From NCBI GenBank assembly GCA_963755915.1, contig CAVWLP010000002.1:1664001-1728000 (forward strand): 64,000 nt of DNA. The letters run 5' to 3'. The position numbers and the translations under genes were made by a program. The notes under the pieces are model-generated. The model searched no databases and was not told the DNA's origin. It worked only from the letters and a program-made list of their open reading frames with translations. Shown in pieces: positions 3 through 11,589 of this stretch (the stretch's first letter is position 1; every line of letters starts with the position of its first letter). This DNA is from an uncultured Phycisphaerales bacterium. GTDB lineage: Bacteria > Planctomycetota > Phycisphaerae > Tepidisphaerales > Tepidisphaeraceae.

Positions 3-239
3 GGGGCGGCGCAGCTTGCGGCGTATCAGCGGGAAATGCGCGGCGGGGAGGCGGGGATGACGGTGGGGGATATTGAGGAGGCGATTGCGGCGACGATCGA
101 GCGGCTGGCGACGAATATCACGGTGCATAATGCGCGGAACCAGCTTGCGGATTTGCCTACGGATTTAACGGTGATTTCTGTGGAACCGATTGTGCGGAGG
201 GTGGGGCGGCGGGGGGAGTATTTGGTGGAGGGGGCGTAG
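3..239 (+). CDS. C-terminal fragment of an AAA+ ATPase, probably ARC/Mpa-like (gene starts upstream of the window)
   Basis: Frame is open from the window edge: GAAQLAAYQREMRGGEAGMTVGDIEEAIAATIERLATNIT...VISVEPI..EGA*. This resembles the final helical part of ARC/Mpa-type ATPases, and it lies directly upstream of dop/pup/pafA-like genes. Walker motifs are outside the window. Confidence 0.5.
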   Translation, partial: GAAQLAAYQREMRGGEAGMTVGDIEEAIAATIERLATNITVHNARNQLADLPTDLTVISVEPIVRRVGRRGEYLVEGA

Positions 240-313
240 ATGGGGATGACACGGGAAGCGCTCCCCTTCGGGTCGCGGCTAAACAAGAAGGGGGTGTGCG
301 AATGGAGATTTTT

Positions 314-2005
314 ATGTCGGGAGAATTGGAAAGGGAGATTGCGAGCGATGGGGTGGTGCCGAAGCTTTGCGGGTCGGATGTGGAGCTGGGGAACTTTATC
401 ATTGAAAGCGGGGGGCGTGGGGGGAATGAAACTGCTCCGGAAGCGGCGGCGGCGCTGCTGGCGCAGGTCAGGGGGCATGCACGGACGGTGGTGCGGAAGG
501 AGGGTTATTTTGCGGTGGGGAGGGATTGGTATGAGGATGGATATGCGTCAACGTCGCCAGGCGGGGGGTATCGGCAGTATGCGCAGGATTTTGGGAGGAA
601 GTTTCTGCCGAAAAATGGGGGGTGTGTTTATATCGATTTGAATCACCTGGAGATTTGTACGGCGGAGTGTTTTAGTGCGCTTCAGCATCTGGCGGCGTCG
701 CGGGGGATGCTGCTGGTGGCGCGGGATGCGATGGTGCGGGCGAATGAATTGATGGGGGATCGGGCCGTCATCAAGGTGCTGGCGAACAATTCGGATGGAC
801 AGGGGCACAGCTATGGGTCGCACGTGAATTACCTGGTGACGCGGCGGTGCTTCAACAACATTTTGTTTCGGAAAATGCACTACCTTCAGTTTTTGGCGTC
901 GATGCAGGCTTCGGCGATTGTGCTCACCGGGGCGGGGAAGGTGGGGGCGGAGAATGGGGAGGGGGGGGTGAAGTATCAGATATCGGCGCGGGCGGATTTT
1001 ATCGAGACGACGATTTCGGAGGCGACGACGTATCGGAGGCCGCTGGTGAATGCGCGGGATGAATCGCTTTCCGGGCCGCGGGACGAGCGGGAGGGGGGAT
1101 TGGCGCGGCTGCATGTGATTATGTTTGACAATGTGCTGTGTCATCACGCGGCGCTGATGCGGGACACGATGATGCAGGTGGTGCTGGCGATGATCGAGCA
1201 GGGGCAGGTGCCGACGAAATTTTTACTGGATGAGCCGGTGACGGCGGTGCACGCGTGGAGCCGGGATCCGGGGCTGAAGGCGCGGGCGCGGCTGGTGGGG
1301 GGACGGGAGTTTACGGCGGTGGAATTTCTGGGGGCGATTTATGAGAAGGCGCGGAGGTTTGTGGATGCGGGGAGAGCGGCGGGGCTGGTGGCGGATGTGG
1401 AGCAGAATATGCGGGTGTGGGGAGAGTGCATGGAGAAGCTGCGCACGGGGGATATGGATTATTTGGCGGAGCGGATTGACTGGGTGGCGAAGATGCGGCT
1501 GCTGGAGCGGGCGCCGGCGAAGCATGGGTGGGAGGAGAGGCGGATGAAATATCTGGACAATTTGTGGTCGAGCCTGGATCCGGGGGAGGGGCTTTACTGG
1601 GGGCTGGAGAAGGCGGGGGGGGTGAAGCGAGTTGTGGAGGATGCGGCGGTGGAGCGGCTGGTGAATGAGCCGCCGGAGGAGACGCGGGCGTGGCTGCGGG
1701 CGTGGGTGCTGCGGAATGCGGCGTCAATGGTGGACGACGTGGACTGGGACATGGTGCGGCTGAGGTCGAGCCGGTTTGGGGATCGGGGGTGGCCGACGTA
1801 TCAGACGCTGCGGATGAACAATCCGTTTGGGTTTACGCGGGCGCGGTGCGAGGGGATTTTGCAATCGGCGGCGTCGCCAATGGAGGGGCTGAGGAGGTTG
1901 TTCAAAGAGATTGGGGAAGTGAATTCGGAAGAAAAATTGGATCGAGAAAGCTGGTCGGCCGGGGTGGTCCCGGATCGATCGGGCGAGTCGGAAAATTTTT
2001 CGTAA
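314..2005 (+). CDS. dop: Dop/PafA2-like depupylase/deamidase (Pup-ligase family)
   Basis: Motifs KLCGSDVELG, NGGCVYIDLNHLEICTAEC, NNSDGQGHSYGSHVNYLV, GAGKVG, YQISARADFIE, RPLVNARDE, RLHVI, IDWVAK, PPEETRAWLR, VDWD. A long W-containing N-terminal loop is typical of Dop rather than PafA. GGAG RBS precedes ATG 314. Confidence 0.8.
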   Translation: MSGELEREIASDGVVPKLCGSDVELGNFIIESGGRGGNETAPEAAAALLAQVRGHARTVVRKEGYFAVGRDWYEDGYASTSPGGGYRQYAQDFGRKFLPKNGGCVYIDLNHLEICTAECFSALQHLAASRGMLLVARDAMVRANELMGDRAVIKVLANNSDGQGHSYGSHVNYLVTRRCFNNILFRKMHYLQFLASMQASAIVLTGAGKVGAENGEGGVKYQISARADFIETTISEATTYRRPLVNARDESLSGPRDEREGGLARLHVIMFDNVLCHHAALMRDTMMQVVLAMIEQGQVPTKFLLDEPVTAVHAWSRDPGLKARARLVGGREFTAVEFLGAIYEKARRFVDAGRAAGLVADVEQNMRVWGECMEKLRTGDMDYLAERIDWVAKMRLLERAPAKHGWEERRMKYLDNLWSSLDPGEGLYWGLEKAGGVKRVVEDAAVERLVNEPPEETRAWLRAWVLRNAASMVDDVDWDMVRLRSSRFGDRGWPTYQTLRMNNPFGFTRARCEGILQSAASPMEGLRRLFKEIGEVNSEEKLDRESWSAGVVPDRSGESENFS

Positions 2006-2017
2006 AGGAGTTGTGTC

Positions 2018-2212
2018 ATGGATACGGAGATGATGGTTCGGGAAATTCATCGTGAGGCGAATGTGGTGCAGGGCGGGCCGGAGGGTGGGGATTCGCAGAC
2101 GGCGGAACAGTGTCAGCGGATGCTGAACGAGGCGGATGCGATGATCGATCAGGCGCTTTCGGGGGATGCGGAGGCGTTTTTGAACGCGAACCGGCAGCAG
2201 GGAGGAGAGTAA
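2018..2212 (+). CDS. pup: Pup-like small protein modifier (64 aa, C-terminal GGE)
   Basis: Acidic, with a low-complexity N-half. The C-half LNEADAMIDQALSGDAEAFLNANRQQGGE mirrors the Pup pattern (D.LLDEIDDVLEENAE.FV..YVQKGG[QE]). AAGGAG RBS; lies between the Dop- and PafA-like genes. Confidence 0.85.
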   Translation: MDTEMMVREIHREANVVQGGPEGGDSQTAEQCQRMLNEADAMIDQALSGDAEAFLNANRQQGGE

Positions 2213-2214
2213 CC

Positions 2215-3842
2215 ATGCGGCGCCTGATGGGAAATGAGAATGAGTATGCGTTTAATGCGACGGGCCCGAGGGGAGGCGCGGCAGACCGCACGCGCGCACT
2301 GCATGAGCTGAATGCGATTGCGGCGAAAGAGCATGCGTGTCTGCCTAGCCTGGGGGGGAGCGGGATTTTTATGGGGAATGGGAGCCGGTCTTACGTGGAT
2401 GCGGGGGAGCACCAGGAGATGTGTACGCCGGAGGTGGATAATCCGTGGGACCTGGTGCGGTATCTGCTGGCGGGGGAGAAGATTCTGTTTGACCTGGCGA
2501 AGAAGCTGGTGGATCGCCGGAAGGTGGGGAGCGCGAAGTTTTATAAGGTGAACGTGGATTATTCGGGGATGGGGACGACGTGGGGGGCGCATGAGAATTA
2601 CATGCACCGGGCGGATGTTTCGAAGCTGCCGAAGGATATGATTCCGTTTTTGATTTCGCGGGTGATTATCACGGGGGCGGGGGGATTCGATCCGACGTCG
2701 GCTGGGAGCTGCCGGTTTACGCTTTCGCCGCGGTCGTTTCACATCAACGCGAGCGTATCGAGCTGTTCGACGGGGGGGCGGGGGATTTATCACACCAAGA
2801 GCGAGTCGCTGTGCAACGGGGGATATCAGCGGTTGCACGTGCTGGTGGGGGAGAGCAACTGCTCGCAGCGGGTGACCTGGCTGAAGGGGGCGACGACGTC
2901 GATGGTGGTGGCGATGGCGGAGGCGGGGTTGAATCCGGGGGAGGGGATGGGGCTGCGATCGCCGGTGGATGCGTACCGGATTTTCGCGTCGGATCCGACA
3001 TGTAAAGAGACGGCGGCGACGGCGGGGGGCGGGCGGGTGAGCGCACTGCAGATTCAGCGGCATTATTGTGAGATGGCGCGGCGGGTGGCGGGGGAACCGT
3101 TTATGCCGGCGTGGGCGCCGGTGGCGGTGGCGGAGTGGGAGGCGATGCTGACGCGATTGGAGAATGCGCCGCAGAGCGTGGCGACTTGCCTGGACTGGGC
3201 CATTAAGCACAGCATCTTCGAGTCGCGGATTCAGCGGCGGGGATTTTCGTGGTGGCTGGTGAAGCAGTGGAACAATTTGATGGGGCTGCTGCGGGTGTGC
3301 GGCGATCTTACGGCGCAGACGGAGCCGAGGCCGCAACTGAACGCGAAATTTGTGCTCGATCCGCAGGGTCCGCTGAAGAACGTGGTGAAGGAGATGACGC
3401 CGATTCTGGCGGCGCGGGGGATGAGCTGGGAGCAGATGGAGGCATTTTTGCAATTGAGGCTGGAGCTTTTTGAGCTGGACATGCGGTTTGGGGAGCTGGG
3501 GCCGGGGGGGATTTTCAATGGGCTGGATGCGGCGGGGGTTTTGAACCATCGGGTGGCGGGGGTGGAGGAGATCGAGCGGGCGACGAGGGAGCCACCGGCG
3601 ACGGGGCGGGCGAAAGTGCGCGGGGAGGCGATCCGGCGGCTGCATGGCGAAGCGCGGCGGTATGGGTGCGACTGGGCGTATATCGTGGATACGCAGACGC
3701 GGGCGGCGCTGGATATGCGCAATCCGTTCACCGACAGCGAAAAGTGGGTGGCGCACCTCAGCGCACGGCGGAGTTCGCGGCGCTGGGGCTGGGCTGGCTG
3801 CATGATTTGCGGACGAATATTGCTGAGAGGTGCTCGACATGA
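2215..3842 (+). CDS. pafA: PafA-like Pup-protein ligase (apparent 1-bp frameshift near 3760-3775)
   Basis: MRRLMGNENEYAF, NGSRSYVDAGEHQEMCTPEV, TWGAHENYM, GAGG, RLHVLVGESN, SALQIQ, LDWAIK, PPATGRAKVRG, DW..., LDMRNPF. An alternative frame ends TAEFAALGLGWLHDLRTNIAERCST* with TGA overlapping the next ATG (ATGA 3839-3842). Confidence 0.85.
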
Positions 3843-4992
3843 TCGTGTTACCAAAATCACTTTTGAAGGAATTGCAGCAGCGGAAGGTGGGGGTGAGGGT
3901 TCTGGATGCCGACACGCTGATGCTGCGGCAGGTGCCGATCAGGGAGGATATGTTCAGCAAGGGGACGACGAATCTGCTGGTGAAGCGTCCGTCGCCGGGG
4001 AAGCCGTATTTGGCGCTGGTGGATGAGGGGCTGAACTATATCGGGGCGGACCGGGATAAGCGGACGGTGCTGCCGGGCGATTGCGTGCGGCAGGGGTGGC
4101 GGGCGCTTTCGCTGGATACGGCGGCGGATCGGGATATGGCTAGCGTGGTGCAGAATGCGCTCAAGATTCTGGGGTTTGATGGGGGGGAATTTTCGGGATT
4201 ACTGGAGAGGTTTGGGAAGAGGATTGAGGGGGAGGTTCGAGAGGTGGTGGGGAGGGAAGAGCAGATCAATGAGGTGATGGCGTGTTTGTGCCGACGCGAG
4301 GCGTGTATGGGGCTGATTGGGGGGGGAGCGGGGGCGGGGAAGAGTTGTTTGTTACGGGGGGTGGCGAAGAAGGTAAATGAGAGTCCGAATTTGGTGAGGA
4401 TTTTTTCGAGGCCCTCACCCCTGCCCTCTCCCGGAGTACCGGGAGAGGGGGTAAGAGCGGGGATGATCGAAGTGAATCTTCTGGAGCTGCTTTCATCCAC
4501 CAGCGATGAGGCGGCGATCCGGTGTTTGATGGAATTGATGGAGGAGGCGGTCCAGAGGCGCCGGTTTTGGCGATTGAGCAGATTGAAATTCTGCTGAACC
4601 AGGTTGCCAATGGGCACCTGGTTTTGAAGCAGGGGATCGACCGGGGGGCGAAGATCGTGGGGACGGCGATGCCGGAGGGGGTGAAGCTGGTGGGGATCGG
4701 GGATCTTTTGCGGCGGGTGCAGGTGGTTTCGCTTCCCGAGCTTGGGCGCGGCGCGGTGATGCAGATTCTCGCTAAGGCGCAGGAGGGATATGGGGTGGAG
4801 ATTCATGAAACGGTTGCGGCGGCGTGCATCAAGGCGGCGAGGGAATTGCCGGGGTGTTTTCCGGGGAAGGCGCTAAGCTTGCTCGATGCGGCGGTAAGTT
4901 TGGCGGTCGTCGGCGGGGCGAAGGTCGTGGCTGCGGATGATATCTATGCGGCGGCGGCGCGGTTCTGGCCGGCGCAACGGGAGAAAGAATGA
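3839..4992 (+). CDS. Fusion of an N-terminal ~115-aa domain (possibly prokaryotic E2/UBC-like) and a single ClpA/B-type NBD1 AAA+ module (frameshift near 4550)
   Basis: ORFs 3830-4597 and 4522-4992 join into GLLERFGK..VVGREEQINEV..LCRR..GGAGAGKS (Walker A)..LAIEQIE (degenerate Walker B)..IVGT..LLRRVQVVSLPE..FPGKALSLLDAA, which matches the Clp D1 layout. There is no second NBD. Confidence 0.7.
4412..4457 (+). repeat. REP-like palindromic element, family A, in-frame inside the Clp-like gene
   Basis: ccctcacccctg-ccctctcccgg-agta-ccgggagaggg-ggtaagag: 11-bp stem; translated as PSPLPSPGVPGEG. Confidence 0.85.
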
Positions 4993-5870
4993 CGGATTCG
5001 AAATGCGGCGGCAGACCAGAGTGTATCCTGGATGTGTGGGATCAATCGGCGCACGATGATGAAATTTGCGCGAACGCGATCGGGACGCTGATCGTGTCGC
5101 GGACGGAATTGCTGAAGGAATTTGATTCGCTGGCGGCGGTGGAGGTGTGTTTGCTGGAGAAGATTCAGGTGATGCCGGATTGCGTGGAAGCGCTGCCGTG
5201 GCTGCTGGCGCTGTCGCAGATCATGGTGAAGACGGGGCGGGCGGAGGCGGGCGAAATGTTTCGCAATCAGGCCATCGAAGTGATTGCGAAAAGCGGGTGG
5301 AACTCGGAACAGATCTCGGAGCACGCGGAGAACCTGCGGGAAATGATCCAGAGCGCGGGGTCGGAGGCGGCCGCGAACAGCGTCCGCCGGCGATTGCGGA
5401 CTCGGGCGCTGATGGGGGACGAGGATGAGGTGGCGTATTTTGAGCTTCGCGAGCTGGCGTTTGAGGCATATAGCGATGGGGCGTTTGCAGATGCGGAGGA
5501 GATCTATCGGCATCTGCTTTCAAAGGATTACGAGAAGCCGGCGACGTTGTGCCACCTGGCGCGGGTGCTGGTGGGATTGGGAAGGGATGGCGAGGCGATA
5601 GAGGCTGTGGAGCGGGCATATTCACTGCGCTCGGAGGCGGAGGGGTATGTGATTGCGAGGATTTATTATCTGCGGGCGCTGCTGGCAACGCTGGGTGGGA
5701 GAGAGGCCCAGGGGCATGTGTCGGATTTGAAGCTGGCGCTGCGGATTGCGGAGAATCGGACGGAGTGGCTGCTGGGGCCGATGCTGGATGCGGTGCGGGG
5801 GAGGATGGAGGGGGGCGCATATGCGCGGTTTGTGGAGTTGGGGGAGATGTTTCGGGATGCGGAGGAGTGA
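4989..5870 (+). CDS. TPR-containing protein
   Basis: ATGA overlap with the upstream gene; TPR-like helices (AFEAYSDGAFADAEEIYRHLL; TLCHLARVLVGLGRDGEAIEAVERAY). Confidence 0.7.
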   Translation: MTDSKCGGRPECILDVWDQSAHDDEICANAIGTLIVSRTELLKEFDSLAAVEVCLLEKIQVMPDCVEALPWLLALSQIMVKTGRAEAGEMFRNQAIEVIAKSGWNSEQISEHAENLREMIQSAGSEAAANSVRRRLRTRALMGDEDEVAYFELRELAFEAYSDGAFADAEEIYRHLLSKDYEKPATLCHLARVLVGLGRDGEAIEAVERAYSLRSEAEGYVIARIYYLRALLATLGGREAQGHVSDLKLALRIAENRTEWLLGPMLDAVRGRMEGGAYARFVELGEMFRDAEE

Positions 5871-5990
5871 GTGTGAGCCCCCAGCTTTTCGCTCATCCGG
5901 ATTACCTGACGGCCCGATTTGTTTGCAATGACTCGACGCTTCAAATCCTAAACGATACAAATCTCCATGAGCTGAAATCGGGTGCAGGCT

Positions 5991-7979
5991 ATGGATGTCA
6001 GACAGGCGATGCTGGTGGCAGCAGCGATGGAGCGAGCGGGAAATTTTGCCGAAGCCGAGAGATTTTACCGCCAAGTGCTGAGTCACCAACCTGCTCATCC
6101 ACAGGCGCTTCACCGGCTCGGAGTATTGGCCTCGTGTGCCGGGCGGCTGGATGCGGGAATCGATTACCTTCAACAGGCGATTGCGATTGAACCAGAAAAC
6201 GCCTATTTCCACAGTGATCTCGGGAATGCGCTCTGCGACAAGGATCGAATGGATGACGCGATTTCCGAATTCCGTTGCGCACTCAGGCTTAATCCGAATT
6301 ATGCCGAGGCGCACAACAATCTTGGAGTGGCCTTAAGGGCGAAAGGATTGCTGAGCGAAGCTATCGGCGAAATTCGTCAGGCGATTGGCCTTAACGAAAA
6401 ATACCCAGACGCGCTAAATAACCTGGGAATCGCTCTTCGTGACGCAGGTCGCGTCGATGAAGCCATAGCCGCGTATCGCAACGCACTGCAAATCCGACCT
6501 GCCTTTCCCGAGGCACACAACAATCTTGGTGTCGCGCTTCGCGATCGAGGCATAATCAATGAGTCGATCGCGGCCTTTCGAACGGCTATTCGCCTGCAGC
6601 CACGTTTCGCCGAGCCGTACGCAAATTTAGGCAACGCGTTGTGCGACTTGCGATCATTCGATGAGGCGATTGATGCCTATAACAAGTTTCTTCGACTTCA
6701 ACCTCAAAACGCCGCCGGCTACAGCAATTTGGGAAACGCCCTGCGCGGCAAAGGTGTGCCTGACGAAGCGATAGCCGCCTACCTGCAAGCGTTGAAATTA
6801 AATCCGCGTTTTGCGGAGGCGCATAGCAATCTTGGCAACGCGCTGCGTCAAAACGGATCGCTCCAGGAAGCTGTCGCCGCTCACCGTCGCGCGATCGAAT
6901 TGAAGCCGGCCTATGCGGATGGCTACTCGAATCTGGCTGACGCTTTGCACGATCTGGGTCAAATTGACGAAGCCGTTTCGGCTTACCGCCAGGCAATTCA
7001 ACTCAATTCGAACCTGGTCGAGGCCCACTATGGGCTGGCGAATTGCCTGTTGCTCCGCGGAGAATTCAACGAGGGGTGGATCGAGTACGAATGGCGCTGG
7101 CGATGGAAGGACTTTCCGTCACAGGCTCGTCAGTTTGCACGGCCGCGTTGGGACGGATCACCTTTAAACGGACGGAAGATTCTGCTGCACAGTGAACAGG
7201 GATTGGGCGATACGATCCAATTCGTGCGATATGCGCTGCTGATTGTTCAGCGAGGAGGGAAAATCGTCATTGAGTGCCAGCCGGAACTCCACCGGCTTCT
7301 TGAATCTCTACCGCTGCCATGCGAGATCGCCACCTTCGGTCAAACCCTCCCGTCATTCGACGTTTATTGTCCGTTACTCAGCCTACCCGCAATCATGGGA
7401 ACCAGCTTGTCCACAATTCCCGCAGTGGTGCCGTACCTGAGCTGCAATCCGCGATTGGTTGAGTTTTGGAAATCCACCATCGAATGTGCGGATGCCAGTA
7501 TCAAAGTTGGTTTGGCGTGGGCAGGTAATCCTCGGTTCAAGGGGGACCGATCGCGGTCGATGAAATTGGCCTCATTGGCTCCGCTGGCGAATGTAAGGGG
7601 TGTGAAGTTTTATAGCCTTCAGAAGGGAGAGGCCGGTAAACAAGCCAACGACCCGCCCGCCGGCCTGCACCTCGTGGACCTGGGCGCTCGACTAACTGAC
7701 TTTGCTGATACTGCGGCAGCAATCTCCTTGATGGATTTGGTGATCACCACGGATACCTCGGTCGCTCATTTGGCCGGGGCAATGGGCAAGCCGGTGTGGG
7801 TGATGCTCGAACTTGTGCCGAATTTTCGATGGCTCCTTGAGCGGACGGATAGCCCGTGGTATCCGACAATGCGATTGTTTCGGCAAAATATCGCGGGCGG
7901 TTGGAATGAGGTTATCGATCGTGTTAGCTCTGAATTAAGTATTTTCCGATCCGTGATTGGCGACGCTTCTGGACGTTGA
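5991..7979 (+). CDS. Multi-TPR protein with C-terminal glycosyltransferase family 9-like domain
   Basis: About 10 TPRs (AEAHNNLGVAL...), then GWIEYEWRW, WDGSPLNGRKILLHSEQGLGDTIQFVRY, GLAWAG, DFADTAA..DLVITTDTSVAHLAGAMG, SPWYPTMRLFRQ. Confidence 0.9.
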   Translation: MDVRQAMLVAAAMERAGNFAEAERFYRQVLSHQPAHPQALHRLGVLASCAGRLDAGIDYLQQAIAIEPENAYFHSDLGNALCDKDRMDDAISEFRCALRLNPNYAEAHNNLGVALRAKGLLSEAIGEIRQAIGLNEKYPDALNNLGIALRDAGRVDEAIAAYRNALQIRPAFPEAHNNLGVALRDRGIINESIAAFRTAIRLQPRFAEPYANLGNALCDLRSFDEAIDAYNKFLRLQPQNAAGYSNLGNALRGKGVPDEAIAAYLQALKLNPRFAEAHSNLGNALRQNGSLQEAVAAHRRAIELKPAYADGYSNLADALHDLGQIDEAVSAYRQAIQLNSNLVEAHYGLANCLLLRGEFNEGWIEYEWRWRWKDFPSQARQFARPRWDGSPLNGRKILLHSEQGLGDTIQFVRYALLIVQRGGKIVIECQPELHRLLESLPLPCEIATFGQTLPSFDVYCPLLSLPAIMGTSLSTIPAVVPYLSCNPRLVEFWKSTIECADASIKVGLAWAGNPRFKGDRSRSMKLASLAPLANVRGVKFYSLQKGEAGKQANDPPAGLHLVDLGARLTDFADTAAAISLMDLVITTDTSVAHLAGAMGKPVWVMLELVPNFRWLLERTDSPWYPTMRLFRQNIAGGWNEVIDRVSSELSIFRSVIGDASGR

Positions 7980-9972: not shown

Positions 9973-11589
9973 ATGACCACGACACGTCTCGGTTGGGTTT
10001 TTATCGCCGGGTTTCTGACATGCATCGCGCTCGGTTTACCCGCAGCATCACAGGGTGCGCCCGAAAATACGTCCAACGGTAACTTCACCGTCGGCCAATG
10101 GGGCATGTACGAAATCGCCCTCCACGGCCCCGCCGGCGGCAACCCGTTCGACGATGTCTCCCTCTTCGCTTCATTCACCTCCGGCTCCAAGACGATCGAC
10201 GCAAACGGCTTTTACGACGGCGACGGCACCTACCGCATCCGCTTCATGCCGATGACACAGGGATCATGGTCGTACGAAACTCACAGCAACATCCCCGCCC
10301 TGGCCGGAAAAACCGGCCATTTCTCCTGCGGCCCGCCCGATCCGGCAAACCATGGCCCCGTTGGCGTCACCAACCATTTTCATTTTGTCTATGCCGACGG
10401 CACCCCCTATTTCGAATGCGGCACTACCGCCTACGAGTGGACCAGCCAGCCCACCACGCGCGAATCCCAAACGCTGCAAACCCTGCGGAACTCTCCCTTC
10501 AACAAAGTGCGCATGTGCGTCTTCCCGTCGGAATTTAAGCCGGACAATATTCCGGCCCGCTGGCCCTTTGAGCCGGCCGATCCAAAATCGGATTACACAA
10601 AATTCAGCACCGACAAGAAGCAGTGGAATTTTGCGCATATCAATCCCGCCTATTTTCGGAACTTTGAGCGGCAGGTTCAGAGCCTTGCCGACGAAGGAAT
10701 TGAAGCCGATGTGATTCTTTTTCACCCCTATGCCAAGACGCTCGGCTTCGCGACGATGCCCGCCGATGCCGACGACCGATACCTACATTATGTCATCGCG
10801 AGACTGGCCGCATATCACAATGTCTGGTGGTCGGCGGCTAACGAATATGACCATCTCCACGCGAAGACAACGGCGGATTGGGATCGTTTCTTTCAGATCA
10901 TCGTCAAAGATGATCCCTACGGACACCTGCGCAGCATTCAACAGGACCGCATCGTTTACAACAAACCCTGGATGACGCACGCCTCCATTCAGGGAACCCC
11001 GCAGCAAAGCGCGGCGAAGAATCGCCGACTATACAACATGCCGATCGTGTTCGATGAGATCAAGTACGAAGGGGACATTCCCCCAGCCTGGGGCCACCTG
11101 CCGGCGGAAGACATGGTGGATCGATTCTGGACCGCCACGGTCCTCGGCGTCTATGCCGGCCACGGCGAGACATTCATGAAAAATGGGTGGACCGGCGTCG
11201 GGGGCGTGCTCATCGGGAAAAGCCCGGCACGACTCGCGTTCTATCGCCAGATCATGCAGAGCAGCCCGCCGGAGGGAATCGAACCGATCGATGAGAGCGA
11301 CGAAGCCACCGTCGGCGGTAAAATCGGCGCGTTTTATTTCGTCTACTTCGGGCGCCATCAACCCCCGAAAAATTGGGTCCTCAAGTTACCCGCCAGGGGC
11401 CTGACGCCCGGCACACAATTGCACGTCGATGTCATCGATACCTGGAACATGACGATAGCGCCGGTGAATCAGGTCTTCACCATGAGCAGCTTAATGGGCA
11501 ATGATCTCACGGCAGAAAATAACACGATCGTTTCGATGCCGAATCAACCTGCGATTTTGCTCCGCGTAACAAAAGTTTCATCGAAGTAA
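9973..11589 (+). CDS. Secreted DUF5060/DUF4038/DUF5605-type (apiosidase-like) putative glycoside hydrolase
   Basis: Signal peptide; GNPFDDV..GFYDGDGTYRIRFMP, HFVYADGTPY..GTTAY, PFNKVRMCVFP, WWSAANEYD, DEIKYEG, YAGHGET, DTWNMT. Confidence 0.85.
   Translation: MTTTRLGWVFIAGFLTCIALGLPAASQGAPENTSNGNFTVGQWGMYEIALHGPAGGNPFDDVSLFASFTSGSKTIDANGFYDGDGTYRIRFMPMTQGSWSYETHSNIPALAGKTGHFSCGPPDPANHGPVGVTNHFHFVYADGTPYFECGTTAYEWTSQPTTRESQTLQTLRNSPFNKVRMCVFPSEFKPDNIPARWPFEPADPKSDYTKFSTDKKQWNFAHINPAYFRNFERQVQSLADEGIEADVILFHPYAKTLGFATMPADADDRYLHYVIARLAAYHNVWWSAANEYDHLHAKTTADWDRFFQIIVKDDPYGHLRSIQQDRIVYNKPWMTHASIQGTPQQSAAKNRRLYNMPIVFDEIKYEGDIPPAWGHLPAEDMVDRFWTATVLGVYAGHGETFMKNGWTGVGGVLIGKSPARLAFYRQIMQSSPPEGIEPIDESDEATVGGKIGAFYFVYFGRHQPPKNWVLKLPARGLTPGTQLHVDVIDTWNMTIAPVNQVFTMSSLMGNDLTAENNTIVSMPNQPAILLRVTKVSSK

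Follow-up and report, generated by a model that had tools for sequence, protein, structure and literature searches.

The 64,000-nucleotide window analysed here (C2:1664001-1728000 of source genome G000, a 6.6-Mb assembly in 3 contigs that is scored 81% complete) opens with six genes that form the distal half of a 12-gene operon of ~11.8 kb, which spans window positions -5931 to 5870. Gene families and motifs suggest that this operon joins two complete, chemically unrelated protein-tagging systems, one ubiquitin-type and one Pup-type, around a single Mpa/ARC-type unfoldase, with proteasome-free unfolding or disassembly of targets under double control as the most likely outcome; we assign this reading a probability of roughly 0.6. 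Ubiquitin-type and Pup-type tagging are a textbook case of convergent evolution and are thought to occur in different organisms. Here, both types lie in one conserved operon around one unfoldase, and they do so across many phyla. We found no published description joining the two halves; Burroughs et al. (2011 and 2012) may already show the neighbourhood.

The six co-oriented genes that had been listed in a preliminary description of the window were all located on the + strand as reported. The first, an Mpa/ARC-type AAA+ ATPase, contributes its last 78 codons (3..239), its start lying at window -1435 (L006 14565). It is followed by a Pup-ligase-family gene, paralogue 1 (302..2005, with an ATG at 302 or 314; PF03136 4.3e-92); a 64-residue Pup-family tag with a GGE end (2018..2212), called from sub-cut-off matches to Pup models together with its C-terminal motif; and a second Pup-ligase-family gene, paralogue 2 (2215..3842 in its restored frame, TGA 3840-3842; PF03136 2.1e-83). 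The operon in G000 closes with a Clp/Hsp100 D1-like AAA+ module behind a conserved N-terminal domain (3839..4992; TIGR02639 ClpA 1.9e-6) and a tetratricopeptide repeat (TPR)-like protein (4989..5870; TPR_12 1.4e-5 and TPR_19 1e-4, both below cut-offs). In these coordinates an L006 position equals the window position + 16000, and L107 is a 13.5-kb stretch whose position 10765 corresponds to window 3765. Reading the sequence confirmed the junctions: a 12-nt gap (2006-2017), a 2-nt gap (2213-2214), and ATGA overlaps at 3839-3842 and 4989-4992. Searches with profile hidden Markov models (HMMs) upheld the family calls for the two PF03136 enzymes and the ClpA D1-like module; the tag and the TPR protein were recovered only below cut-offs. 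Consistent with the proposal that the host is a planctomycete, close homologues carry the source name Tepidisphaeraceae.

No ordinary actinobacterial synteny was found on the upstream contig; RING-like, E1, E2, ubiquitin-like protein (Ubl) and JAB genes precede the ATPase instead, and the six window genes are thus not the self-contained module that had been proposed. All of the upstream genes lie on one strand, with junctions that are tight or overlapping. The series begins with the RING-like gene (L006 10069-10544; Prok-RING_1 E 0.015) and continues, also on the + strand, with a ThiF-type E1 (L006 10541-11614; PF00899 3.6e-21), an E2 (L006 11622-12167; PF00179 UQ_con E 0.033), a tandem type-III-secretion-chaperone/YbjN-like protein recognized by its predicted fold (L006 12154-13134), the Ubl (L006 13106-13384; YukD E 0.098) and a JAB/JAMM peptidase (L006 13499-14575; PF01398 2.2e-4, 21.4 bits vs a cut-off of 22.5), the stop of which overlaps the start of the complete ATPase gene (L006 14565-16239). 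Family searches of these upstream genes were run on the intact orthologues of a congener, G010.

Alignments support these assignments. In the E2, residues H93-P94-N95 and C102 were invariant among 15 aligned sequences, the cysteine lying seven residues past HPN, and the JAMM motif HxH...SxxD was present in 22/22 JAB open reading frames (ORFs). All 16 mature forms of the Ubl carried P-x-[IV]-x-A-G, that is, an Ala-Gly end. Six of the 17 Ubl genes, including that of G000, stop directly after AG; the other 11 encode short tails, and their products look like precursors that are trimmed to a reactive glycine. The RING-like protein scored 15.7 bits against Prok-RING_1 (cut-off 29.1), and its Cys/His pattern is conserved: six cysteines were invariant, another was present in 11/12 sequences and a His pair in most, yielding C-x2-C ... 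C-x2-C ... H ... C ... C-x-C (C4HC3-type). From motifs, the front of this protein is predicted to be FHA-like. The model of the chaperone-like protein (predicted local distance difference test, pLDDT, 87; predicted template-modelling score, pTM, 0.87) contains two copies of the type-III-secretion-chaperone/YbjN fold, and its single domains matched VecA, YbjN, ExsC and SigE at target-normalised template-modelling scores of ~0.6. Whole-length matches to ARPC2 had a root-mean-square deviation of 17 Å and were not taken as kinship.

The Pup-type half could be compared with its canonical counterparts at the level of both enzymes and the tag. Paralogue 1 scored 254.4 bits against the Dop model TIGR03688 and 229.1 against the PafA model TIGR03686, both below cut-offs; this slight preference for Dop was seen in G000 and G010 alike, and all NCBIfam scores fell far below the equivalog cut-offs. 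In a FastTree phylogeny of 81 sequences (midpoint-rooted, with long branches flagged by the tool), the cassette paralogues formed two clean groups with support of 100 each. Planctomycete paralogues served as the outgroup to Dop and PafA in a published analysis (PMC7947786). The tag scored 14.2 bits against PF05639 (cut-off 27; E 0.085) and 16.5 bits against TIGR03687 (cut-off 41.45; E 0.0065), and its end parallels that of Pup even though these Pfam and NCBIfam scores are sub-cut-off. The 17 aligned orthologues share a helix followed by an ...RQxGG motif before the end, and every one of them terminates in G[EQ], with E in seven and Q in ten. The Q-ended tags imply the presence of a deamidase. 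A third Pup_ligase paralogue, of 650-730 residues, was observed on the opposite strand near the cassette in the Acidobacteriaceae loci L030, L031 and L037; in the tree it groups as sister to the paralogue 2 that these genomes carry.

The order of genes from the RING-like gene to paralogue 2 is retained in four congeners (G010, G003, G012 and G008) and in at least five other phyla, indicating that the arrangement is not a matter of chance. A locus scan over species-representative genomes yielded 80 loci, of which 20 are the nearest (40-56% identity) and 60 are more distant and canonical. The nearest came from Planctomycetota (Thermoguttaceae, Phycisphaerae), Acidobacteriota, Myxococcota ("Deltaproteobacteria"), Omnitrophota, Gemmatimonadota and Verrucomicrobiota, some of them on short contigs whose binning is uncertain. 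Of the 13 distant loci with at least 5 kb of upstream DNA, 12 had an ATPase gene preceded by E2 and Ubl genes. Conversely, none of the five ubiquitin-side genes occurred in any of the 60 canonical loci (Actinomycetota, Nitrospira, Poribacteria and others), in which paralogue 2 lies ~3.2-3.5 kb or more past Dop, with space for pup-prcB-prcA. In the window, the tag and paralogue 2 are 2 nt apart and the genome search returned no prcA or prcB match, bearing out the earlier statement that prcBA is lacking between them.

The E2 provided a second view of the linkage between the halves. An E2 profile run over 401 Planctomycetota genomes gave seven strong matches (>170 bits, G000 included) and ~52 weaker ones. 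The whole cassette was present at 5/5 of the strong loci with enough flanking DNA, and a sixth locus ends at a contig end. ATPase and Pup genes were absent from all six of the weaker E2 loci that were retrieved, one of which is in G000 itself (C2:1803953); thus, the E2 lineage of the cassette is tied to the Pup half, whereas its sister lineage is not. The weaker-tier locus of G000 lies outside the window, at C2:1797001-1816000 (L114), and is a second ubiquitin-like set with E1, JAB and E2 matches and without ATPase or Pup genes. When the chaperone-like protein was used as a marker among 1.84 billion cluster representatives, we recovered 1,589 relatives at E ≤1e-3 and 841 at ≤1e-30; the cassette is thus common in metagenomes.

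As deposited, several of these genes are broken. The literal frame of paralogue 2 runs to 4026 with a junk tail rather than ending at 3842, the Clp-like gene appears in two pieces (3839-4597 and 4522-4992), and comparison of L107 with intact orthologues revealed six frame breaks in all: in the RING-like gene, JAB (twice), the ATPase, paralogue 2 and the Clp-like gene. We compared L107 with contigs of four public short-read soil runs from one study; these may include the source sample and so are not independent proof of the organism's existence. Relative to the assembly, the short-read contigs had an additional G at L107 1481 (two runs), an additional GC at 5480 (one run), one base fewer at 6719 (three runs), an additional C plus an A>G change at 10765 (window 3765, paralogue 2; run X3 only) and an additional G at 11561 (window 4561, Clp-like gene; run X1 only). 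The change at 6719 marks a 1-nt insertion of the assembly in the ATPase, at window -281/-280 (L006 15719-15720). Each of the five changes gives back the frame found in relatives. The breaks are assembly errors, and the genes are intact, with five of the six repaired by short-read contigs. That the deposited sequence contains six breaks might have pointed to a decaying, frameshifted relic, but five are missing from the short-read contigs, the sixth sits in a G homopolymer and similar splits occur in two other congener genomes of few contigs and low completeness (G006 and G012), so that this explanation is scarcely tenable. At six single-letter differences, L107 8445, 9298, 10765, 12053, 12819 and 13281 (window 1445, 2298, 3765, 5053, 5819 and 6281), the assembly had A and the short-read contigs G in 6/6 cases; these differences could stem from a systematic error of the consensus or from strain variants with still more G.

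At the centre of the operon, the ATPase resembles the proteasomal ATPases in architecture. For the G010 orthologue, TIGR03689 was the best NCBIfam match (233.4 bits, cut-off 504.75), and the AAA domain (PF00004, 1.5e-30) was accompanied by both proteasomal-ATPase OB domains (PF16450, 2.1e-10; PF17758, 3.5e-4). The C-terminus differs: a terminal GxYL was present in 0/25 cassette ATPases compared with 6/6 canonical loci (G[QTH]YL), and the G000 protein ends in ...EYLVEGA. Neither of the 20S models, TIGR03690 and TIGR03691, matched anything in the G000 assembly. The lack of both a 20S partner and a terminal GQYL argues for unfolding or disassembly, not proteolysis.

Several observations weigh against the reading of the operon as two complete tagging systems that serve proteasome-free unfolding. 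Most cassette ATPases keep ...HR[YF]L 2-8 residues before their end, and this basic-aromatic motif could be a docking element; further, with the genome 81% complete, a 20S particle might still be encoded elsewhere. The motif also speaks for an alternative, a degradation pathway in which the ATPase would hand its tagged substrates on to a peptidase encoded elsewhere, for example HslV, a beta-like N-terminal nucleophile (Ntn) protein, ClpP, Lon or FtsH. In G000, PF00227 matched HslV (NF003964, 1.5e-78) and a weak beta-like ORF, and both were found in all six cassette-bearing family genomes searched (G000 and five relatives), which speaks for degradation; five cassette genomes of other phyla each had just one or two PF00227-type matches. 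The beta-like ORF was, however, also present in three of five cassette-free relatives (a tally that includes the unpublished genome G014) and so is not tied to the cassette. The docking-like motif was terminal in 0/25 cassette ATPases, and no locus read contained a linked peptidase gene. Finally, the Clp-like protein (373 residues) terminates after its D1 lid, and the D2 module, where the ClpP-docking loop of Clp ATPases is located, is absent; feeding of ClpP, one of the roles suggested in the preliminary description, is therefore unlikely. With the conserved motif and the shared HslV and beta-like genes on its side and these points against it, we consider delivery to a peptidase improbable.

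Other points against the reading concern the identity and linkage of the parts. The model matches of the tag, E2, JAB, RING-like protein and Ubl are all under curated cut-offs. Both paralogue groups fall outside the canonical Dop+PafA group (support 91) in the 81-sequence tree, and HMM scores of paralogue 2 are higher for PafA in G000 but for Dop in G010. Phylogeny cannot assign the names "Dop-like" and "PafA-like", and the order of HMM scores swaps between genomes. The sixth frame break, in a G homopolymer at the front of JAB (L107 ~4630), falls where there is no informative contig coverage. In addition, locus L027, on a Thermoguttaceae contig, has no E1, E2 or Ubl match (JAB was not scored), so the two halves can separate. 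L027 consists of RING-like, chaperone-like, ATPase, paralogue 1 and tag genes and a paralogue 2-TPR fusion. This Pup half without E1, E2 and Ubl, together with the reality and tight coupling of the six window genes, is what favours the original proposal, in which six genes form a self-contained module for pupylation only, with a writer, an eraser, a tag, AAA readers and a TPR adaptor. In G000 and almost all relatives, however, the ubiquitin-type half directly precedes it on the same strand, and the RING-like and chaperone-like genes are retained even in L027. We regard a pupylation-only module as very unlikely. The content of L027 suggests that the Pup half, too, makes use of the RING-like and chaperone-like proteins.

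We infer the catalytic and binding steps of the preferred, two-system reading from the composition of the operon, which was read directly. One paralogue, most likely paralogue 2 with a TPR partner that helps in target choice, would ligate the terminal glutamate of the tag to target lysines, and the other would deamidate GGQ tags and strip tags from targets. The ATPase ring would capture the tag by its coiled-coil/OB front, as Mpa does Pup, and the outcome for a target would be unfolding or disassembly, not delivery to a protease. A similar role is proposed for ARC in proteasome-free actinobacteria. On the ubiquitin-type side, E1, E2 and the RING-like protein would put Ubl on targets; JAB would mature Ubl by trimming its tail and would also remove it from targets, much like Rpn11 in the lid of the proteasome. 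The arrangement makes testable, with twelve soluble proteins, (i) how labour is split between the two tags, (ii) what a proteasome-type ATPase does without a proteasome, and (iii) whether the pairing of JAMM enzyme and ATPase predates the eukaryotic lid.

The nearest known system for the distal half is the actinobacterial Pup-proteasome system. Shared with it are an ATPase with a coiled coil, a double OB region and a single AAA module, the order ATPase, enzyme, tag, enzyme, and the two Pup-ligase-fold enzymes that flank a small GG[EQ]-ended tag. The cassette differs in that it has no prcBA and no terminal GQYL, its tag is sub-cut-off, its enzymes lie outside the Dop/PafA split and an E1/E2/Ubl/JAB/RING set is attached. 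A proteasome-less form of the Pup system occurs in Corynebacterium. Iyer et al. 2008 (PMC2588565) predicted Pup ligases and described proteasome-free Pup/PafA in Rhodopirellula and Plesiocystis, as a membrane-anchored variant. Like the cassette, that variant is a planctomycete Pup/PafA pair without linked proteasome genes. Its ligase contains four inserted transmembrane segments and its locus a membrane protein (PMC2588565), neither of which was noticed in the cassette sequences, for which no transmembrane prediction was made.

The proximal half resembles the E1/E2/(RING)/Ubl/JAB operons (Caldiarchaeum-type, bacterial and Bil) in its separate ThiF-type E1, HPN...C E2, JAMM peptidase and small binuclear zinc protein, and in a small putative Ubl whose Gly end looks trimmed. 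It departs from them in the Ala-Gly end of the mature Ubl, in the tandem secretion-chaperone-like protein between E2 and Ubl, and in that the operon runs on into an unfoldase and a Pup system. Compared with Bil (BilABCD), the PADLOC Bil models were unmatched apart from a weak BilD match of the E1. Burroughs, Iyer and Aravind reportedly listed bacterial E1/E2/Ubl/JAB operons in 2011. Such E1/E2/JAB operons, some with RING, are known (PMC3417536; 10.1101/2023.09.26.559546).

A further comparison can be drawn with the base and lid of the eukaryotic 26S proteasome (Rpt ring, Rpn11). In both, a JAMM enzyme is paired with a ring of PAN/Rpt/Mpa type: the cassette gene for the former is translationally coupled to that for the latter, and E1/E2/RING and Ubl genes adjoin. 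The cassette, in contrast, has no 20S core and one ATPase gene, and the likeness is a resemblance only. We put forward as speculation, and rather doubt, that the operon encodes a "regulatory particle without a core", in which one Mpa-type ring and a JAMM enzyme acting like Rpn11 would read two orthogonal tags, the Ubl attached by E1, E2 and RING and the Pup-like tail attached by a ligase, unfolding or dismantling targets only when both marks are present or in a Ubl-then-Pup relay. Such a two-key switch would have been spread by gene transfer and would perhaps act against invaders.

The distribution of the cassette bears on its biological role. Paralogue 1 was found in 8/41 related genomes including G000: 6/12 of the other genomes of the genus and 1/12 in other genera of the family. 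Copies in congeners are just 53-57% identical to that of G000, and none of five G000 flank genes lies beside the cassette in G010, G003, G012 or G008. The nearest relatives at 40-47% identity are in Acidobacteriota, Myxococcota, Omnitrophota, Gemmatimonadota and Verrucomicrobiota. This patchy, cross-phylum spread, together with the divergence of the copies and the unshared flanks, fits a mobile conflict or stress cassette and is no proof of one. A role as a mobile conflict or anti-phage cassette, in which invader proteins would be tagged, much as phage tail proteins are by Bil systems, and the ATPase would pull the marked assemblies apart, is compatible with the mechanism that we prefer. It is consistent with the PADLOC results, where the E1 matched CBASS E1-E2 and BilD models (BilD weakly, 1.1e-6) and the ATPase matched TRIP13 and IetA models, and with the view of E1/E2/JAB operons as mobile conflict systems (PMC3417536; 10.1101/2023.09.26.559546). 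These PADLOC matches are, however, generic domain matches; JAB matched just the generic CBASS-type JAB model, and the E2, Ubl, tag, paralogue 1, TPR, RING-like and chaperone-like proteins had no PADLOC match. Moreover, the flanks read showed neither integrase nor phage genes and no further defence genes. On balance we hold a conflict role to be possible, with the odds somewhat against it. Were the cassette a defence system, it would bring a new logic to bacterial ubiquitin-like immune pathways.

We further examined the two accessory genes, which form a lineage-specific pair. The Clp-like family comprises 110 homologues of ~380 residues, in which AAA_lid_9 is present. An AlphaFold model of the G010 orthologue (pLDDT 91.8) consists of a front domain of ~110-115 residues (helix, four strands, helices), a disordered linker and the AAA+ module, and Foldseek placed the last of these on D1 of ClpA, ClpC, ClpB and Hsp104 (2.8e-14 to 6e-12). 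Walker A is intact. In the Walker B column, aligned to the Clp motif by eye, nearly all of 49 aligned sequences have E followed by H, Q or R, not DE, and the protein is probably ATP-binding and non-hydrolysing. No Clp_N match was obtained. About a dozen residues of the front domain are invariant, and searches for its relatives returned nothing: a PDB profile search gave 0 matches at E up to 10, Pfam on eight members nothing meaningful, an Atlas feature search values <0.9, and Foldseek on the whole model Clp D1 matches only. A UBC/RWD/UEV-like fold had been surmised for the front domain; hhalign against the operon's own E2 gave a probability of 0.1.

Confirming that the linkage of the accessory genes recurs, a Clp-like gene lies downstream of paralogue 2 in G010, G003 and G012 and in five of the 12 distant loci whose downstream DNA extends far enough (L028, L031, L034, L037 and L038); it was so placed in none of three E2-centred loci. 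In G010, G003 and G012, TPR orthologues (36% identical) lie between paralogue 2 and the Clp-like gene, an order swapped relative to G000, and there is an additional small TPR gene; TPR_12 matched the G010 orthologue above cut-off (3.5e-12). G008 has neither a TPR nor a Clp-like gene, and its paralogue 2 is 853 residues long. In the other loci paralogue 2 is the last gene of the operon and is often a long form. Four of five long forms showed weak, sub-cut-off TPR matches in their C-terminal extension of an extra 200-350 residues, which suggests that the free TPR protein works as a partner of paralogue 2. Similarity between the stand-alone TPR protein and the fused extensions is generic (best blastp E 6e-4), and an HMM of four TPR orthologues found nothing among the extensions.

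A repetitive extragenic palindromic (REP)-like repeat of 42 nt (4410-4451) lies in frame in the ATPase module of the Clp-like gene, where it adds ~15-20 residues that the orthologues lack; the stretch is absent from the G010 protein. At its edges (L107 11410/11451) the short-read contigs break and depth peaks, and its 26-nt core has 258 copies in the G000 genome at ≤4 mismatches. A second REP-like copy was observed in frame in the chaperone-like gene (window -3757 to -3715, L006 12243-12285), and in G010 a similar element lengthens the ATPase ORF at its 3' end.

The operon also stands out for its strand asymmetry. GC skew reaches +0.4 to +0.5 across the operon block (window -6400 to 5900, C2:1657600-1669900). 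At four-fold sites of residues identical in G000 and G010, G ends 509 of 583 codons (87%) in G000 vs 160 of 583 in G010 (C in 317), and at purine-ending two-fold sites G occurs in 113/130 vs 67/130. Blocks with an absolute skew of at least 0.25, of either sign, cover 966 kb of the 6.6-Mb genome, and no strand skew of this kind was found at the orthologous loci of congeners. The skewed letters were confirmed by short-read contigs at ≥99% identity. We rejected the idea that G-richness is a codon dialect of the operon: across the genome, of 69 neighbour pairs of genes with strong skew and opposite orientation, 68 agreed in the sign on the DNA strand and one in the sign on the coding strand.

Upstream of the operon, ~390 nt before its first gene, we observed a 46-nt element (TATATA, a hairpin of 9-10 bp and a T-run) at window -6363 to -6318 (L107 637-682), with a sigma-70-like site 40 nt downstream of it. 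The genome has 42 copies at ≤8 mismatches, in 36 of which the strand of the element is the G-rich one, and a copy lies in L114. The element may serve as a common promoter, leader or terminator module. The relatives' loci compared contained no copy, and the upstream spacer had no Rfam match. A scan of promoters and terminators gave no signal, with one promoter-like site vs 2.9 expected, which falls within the upstream spacer, and 12 terminator-like sites vs 8.8. Past the other end of the operon, the next gene (window 5982-7979), with TPR repeats and a glycosyltransferase-9-like end, shows no strand skew and is flanked by two strongly skewed blocks; it might be a later insertion.

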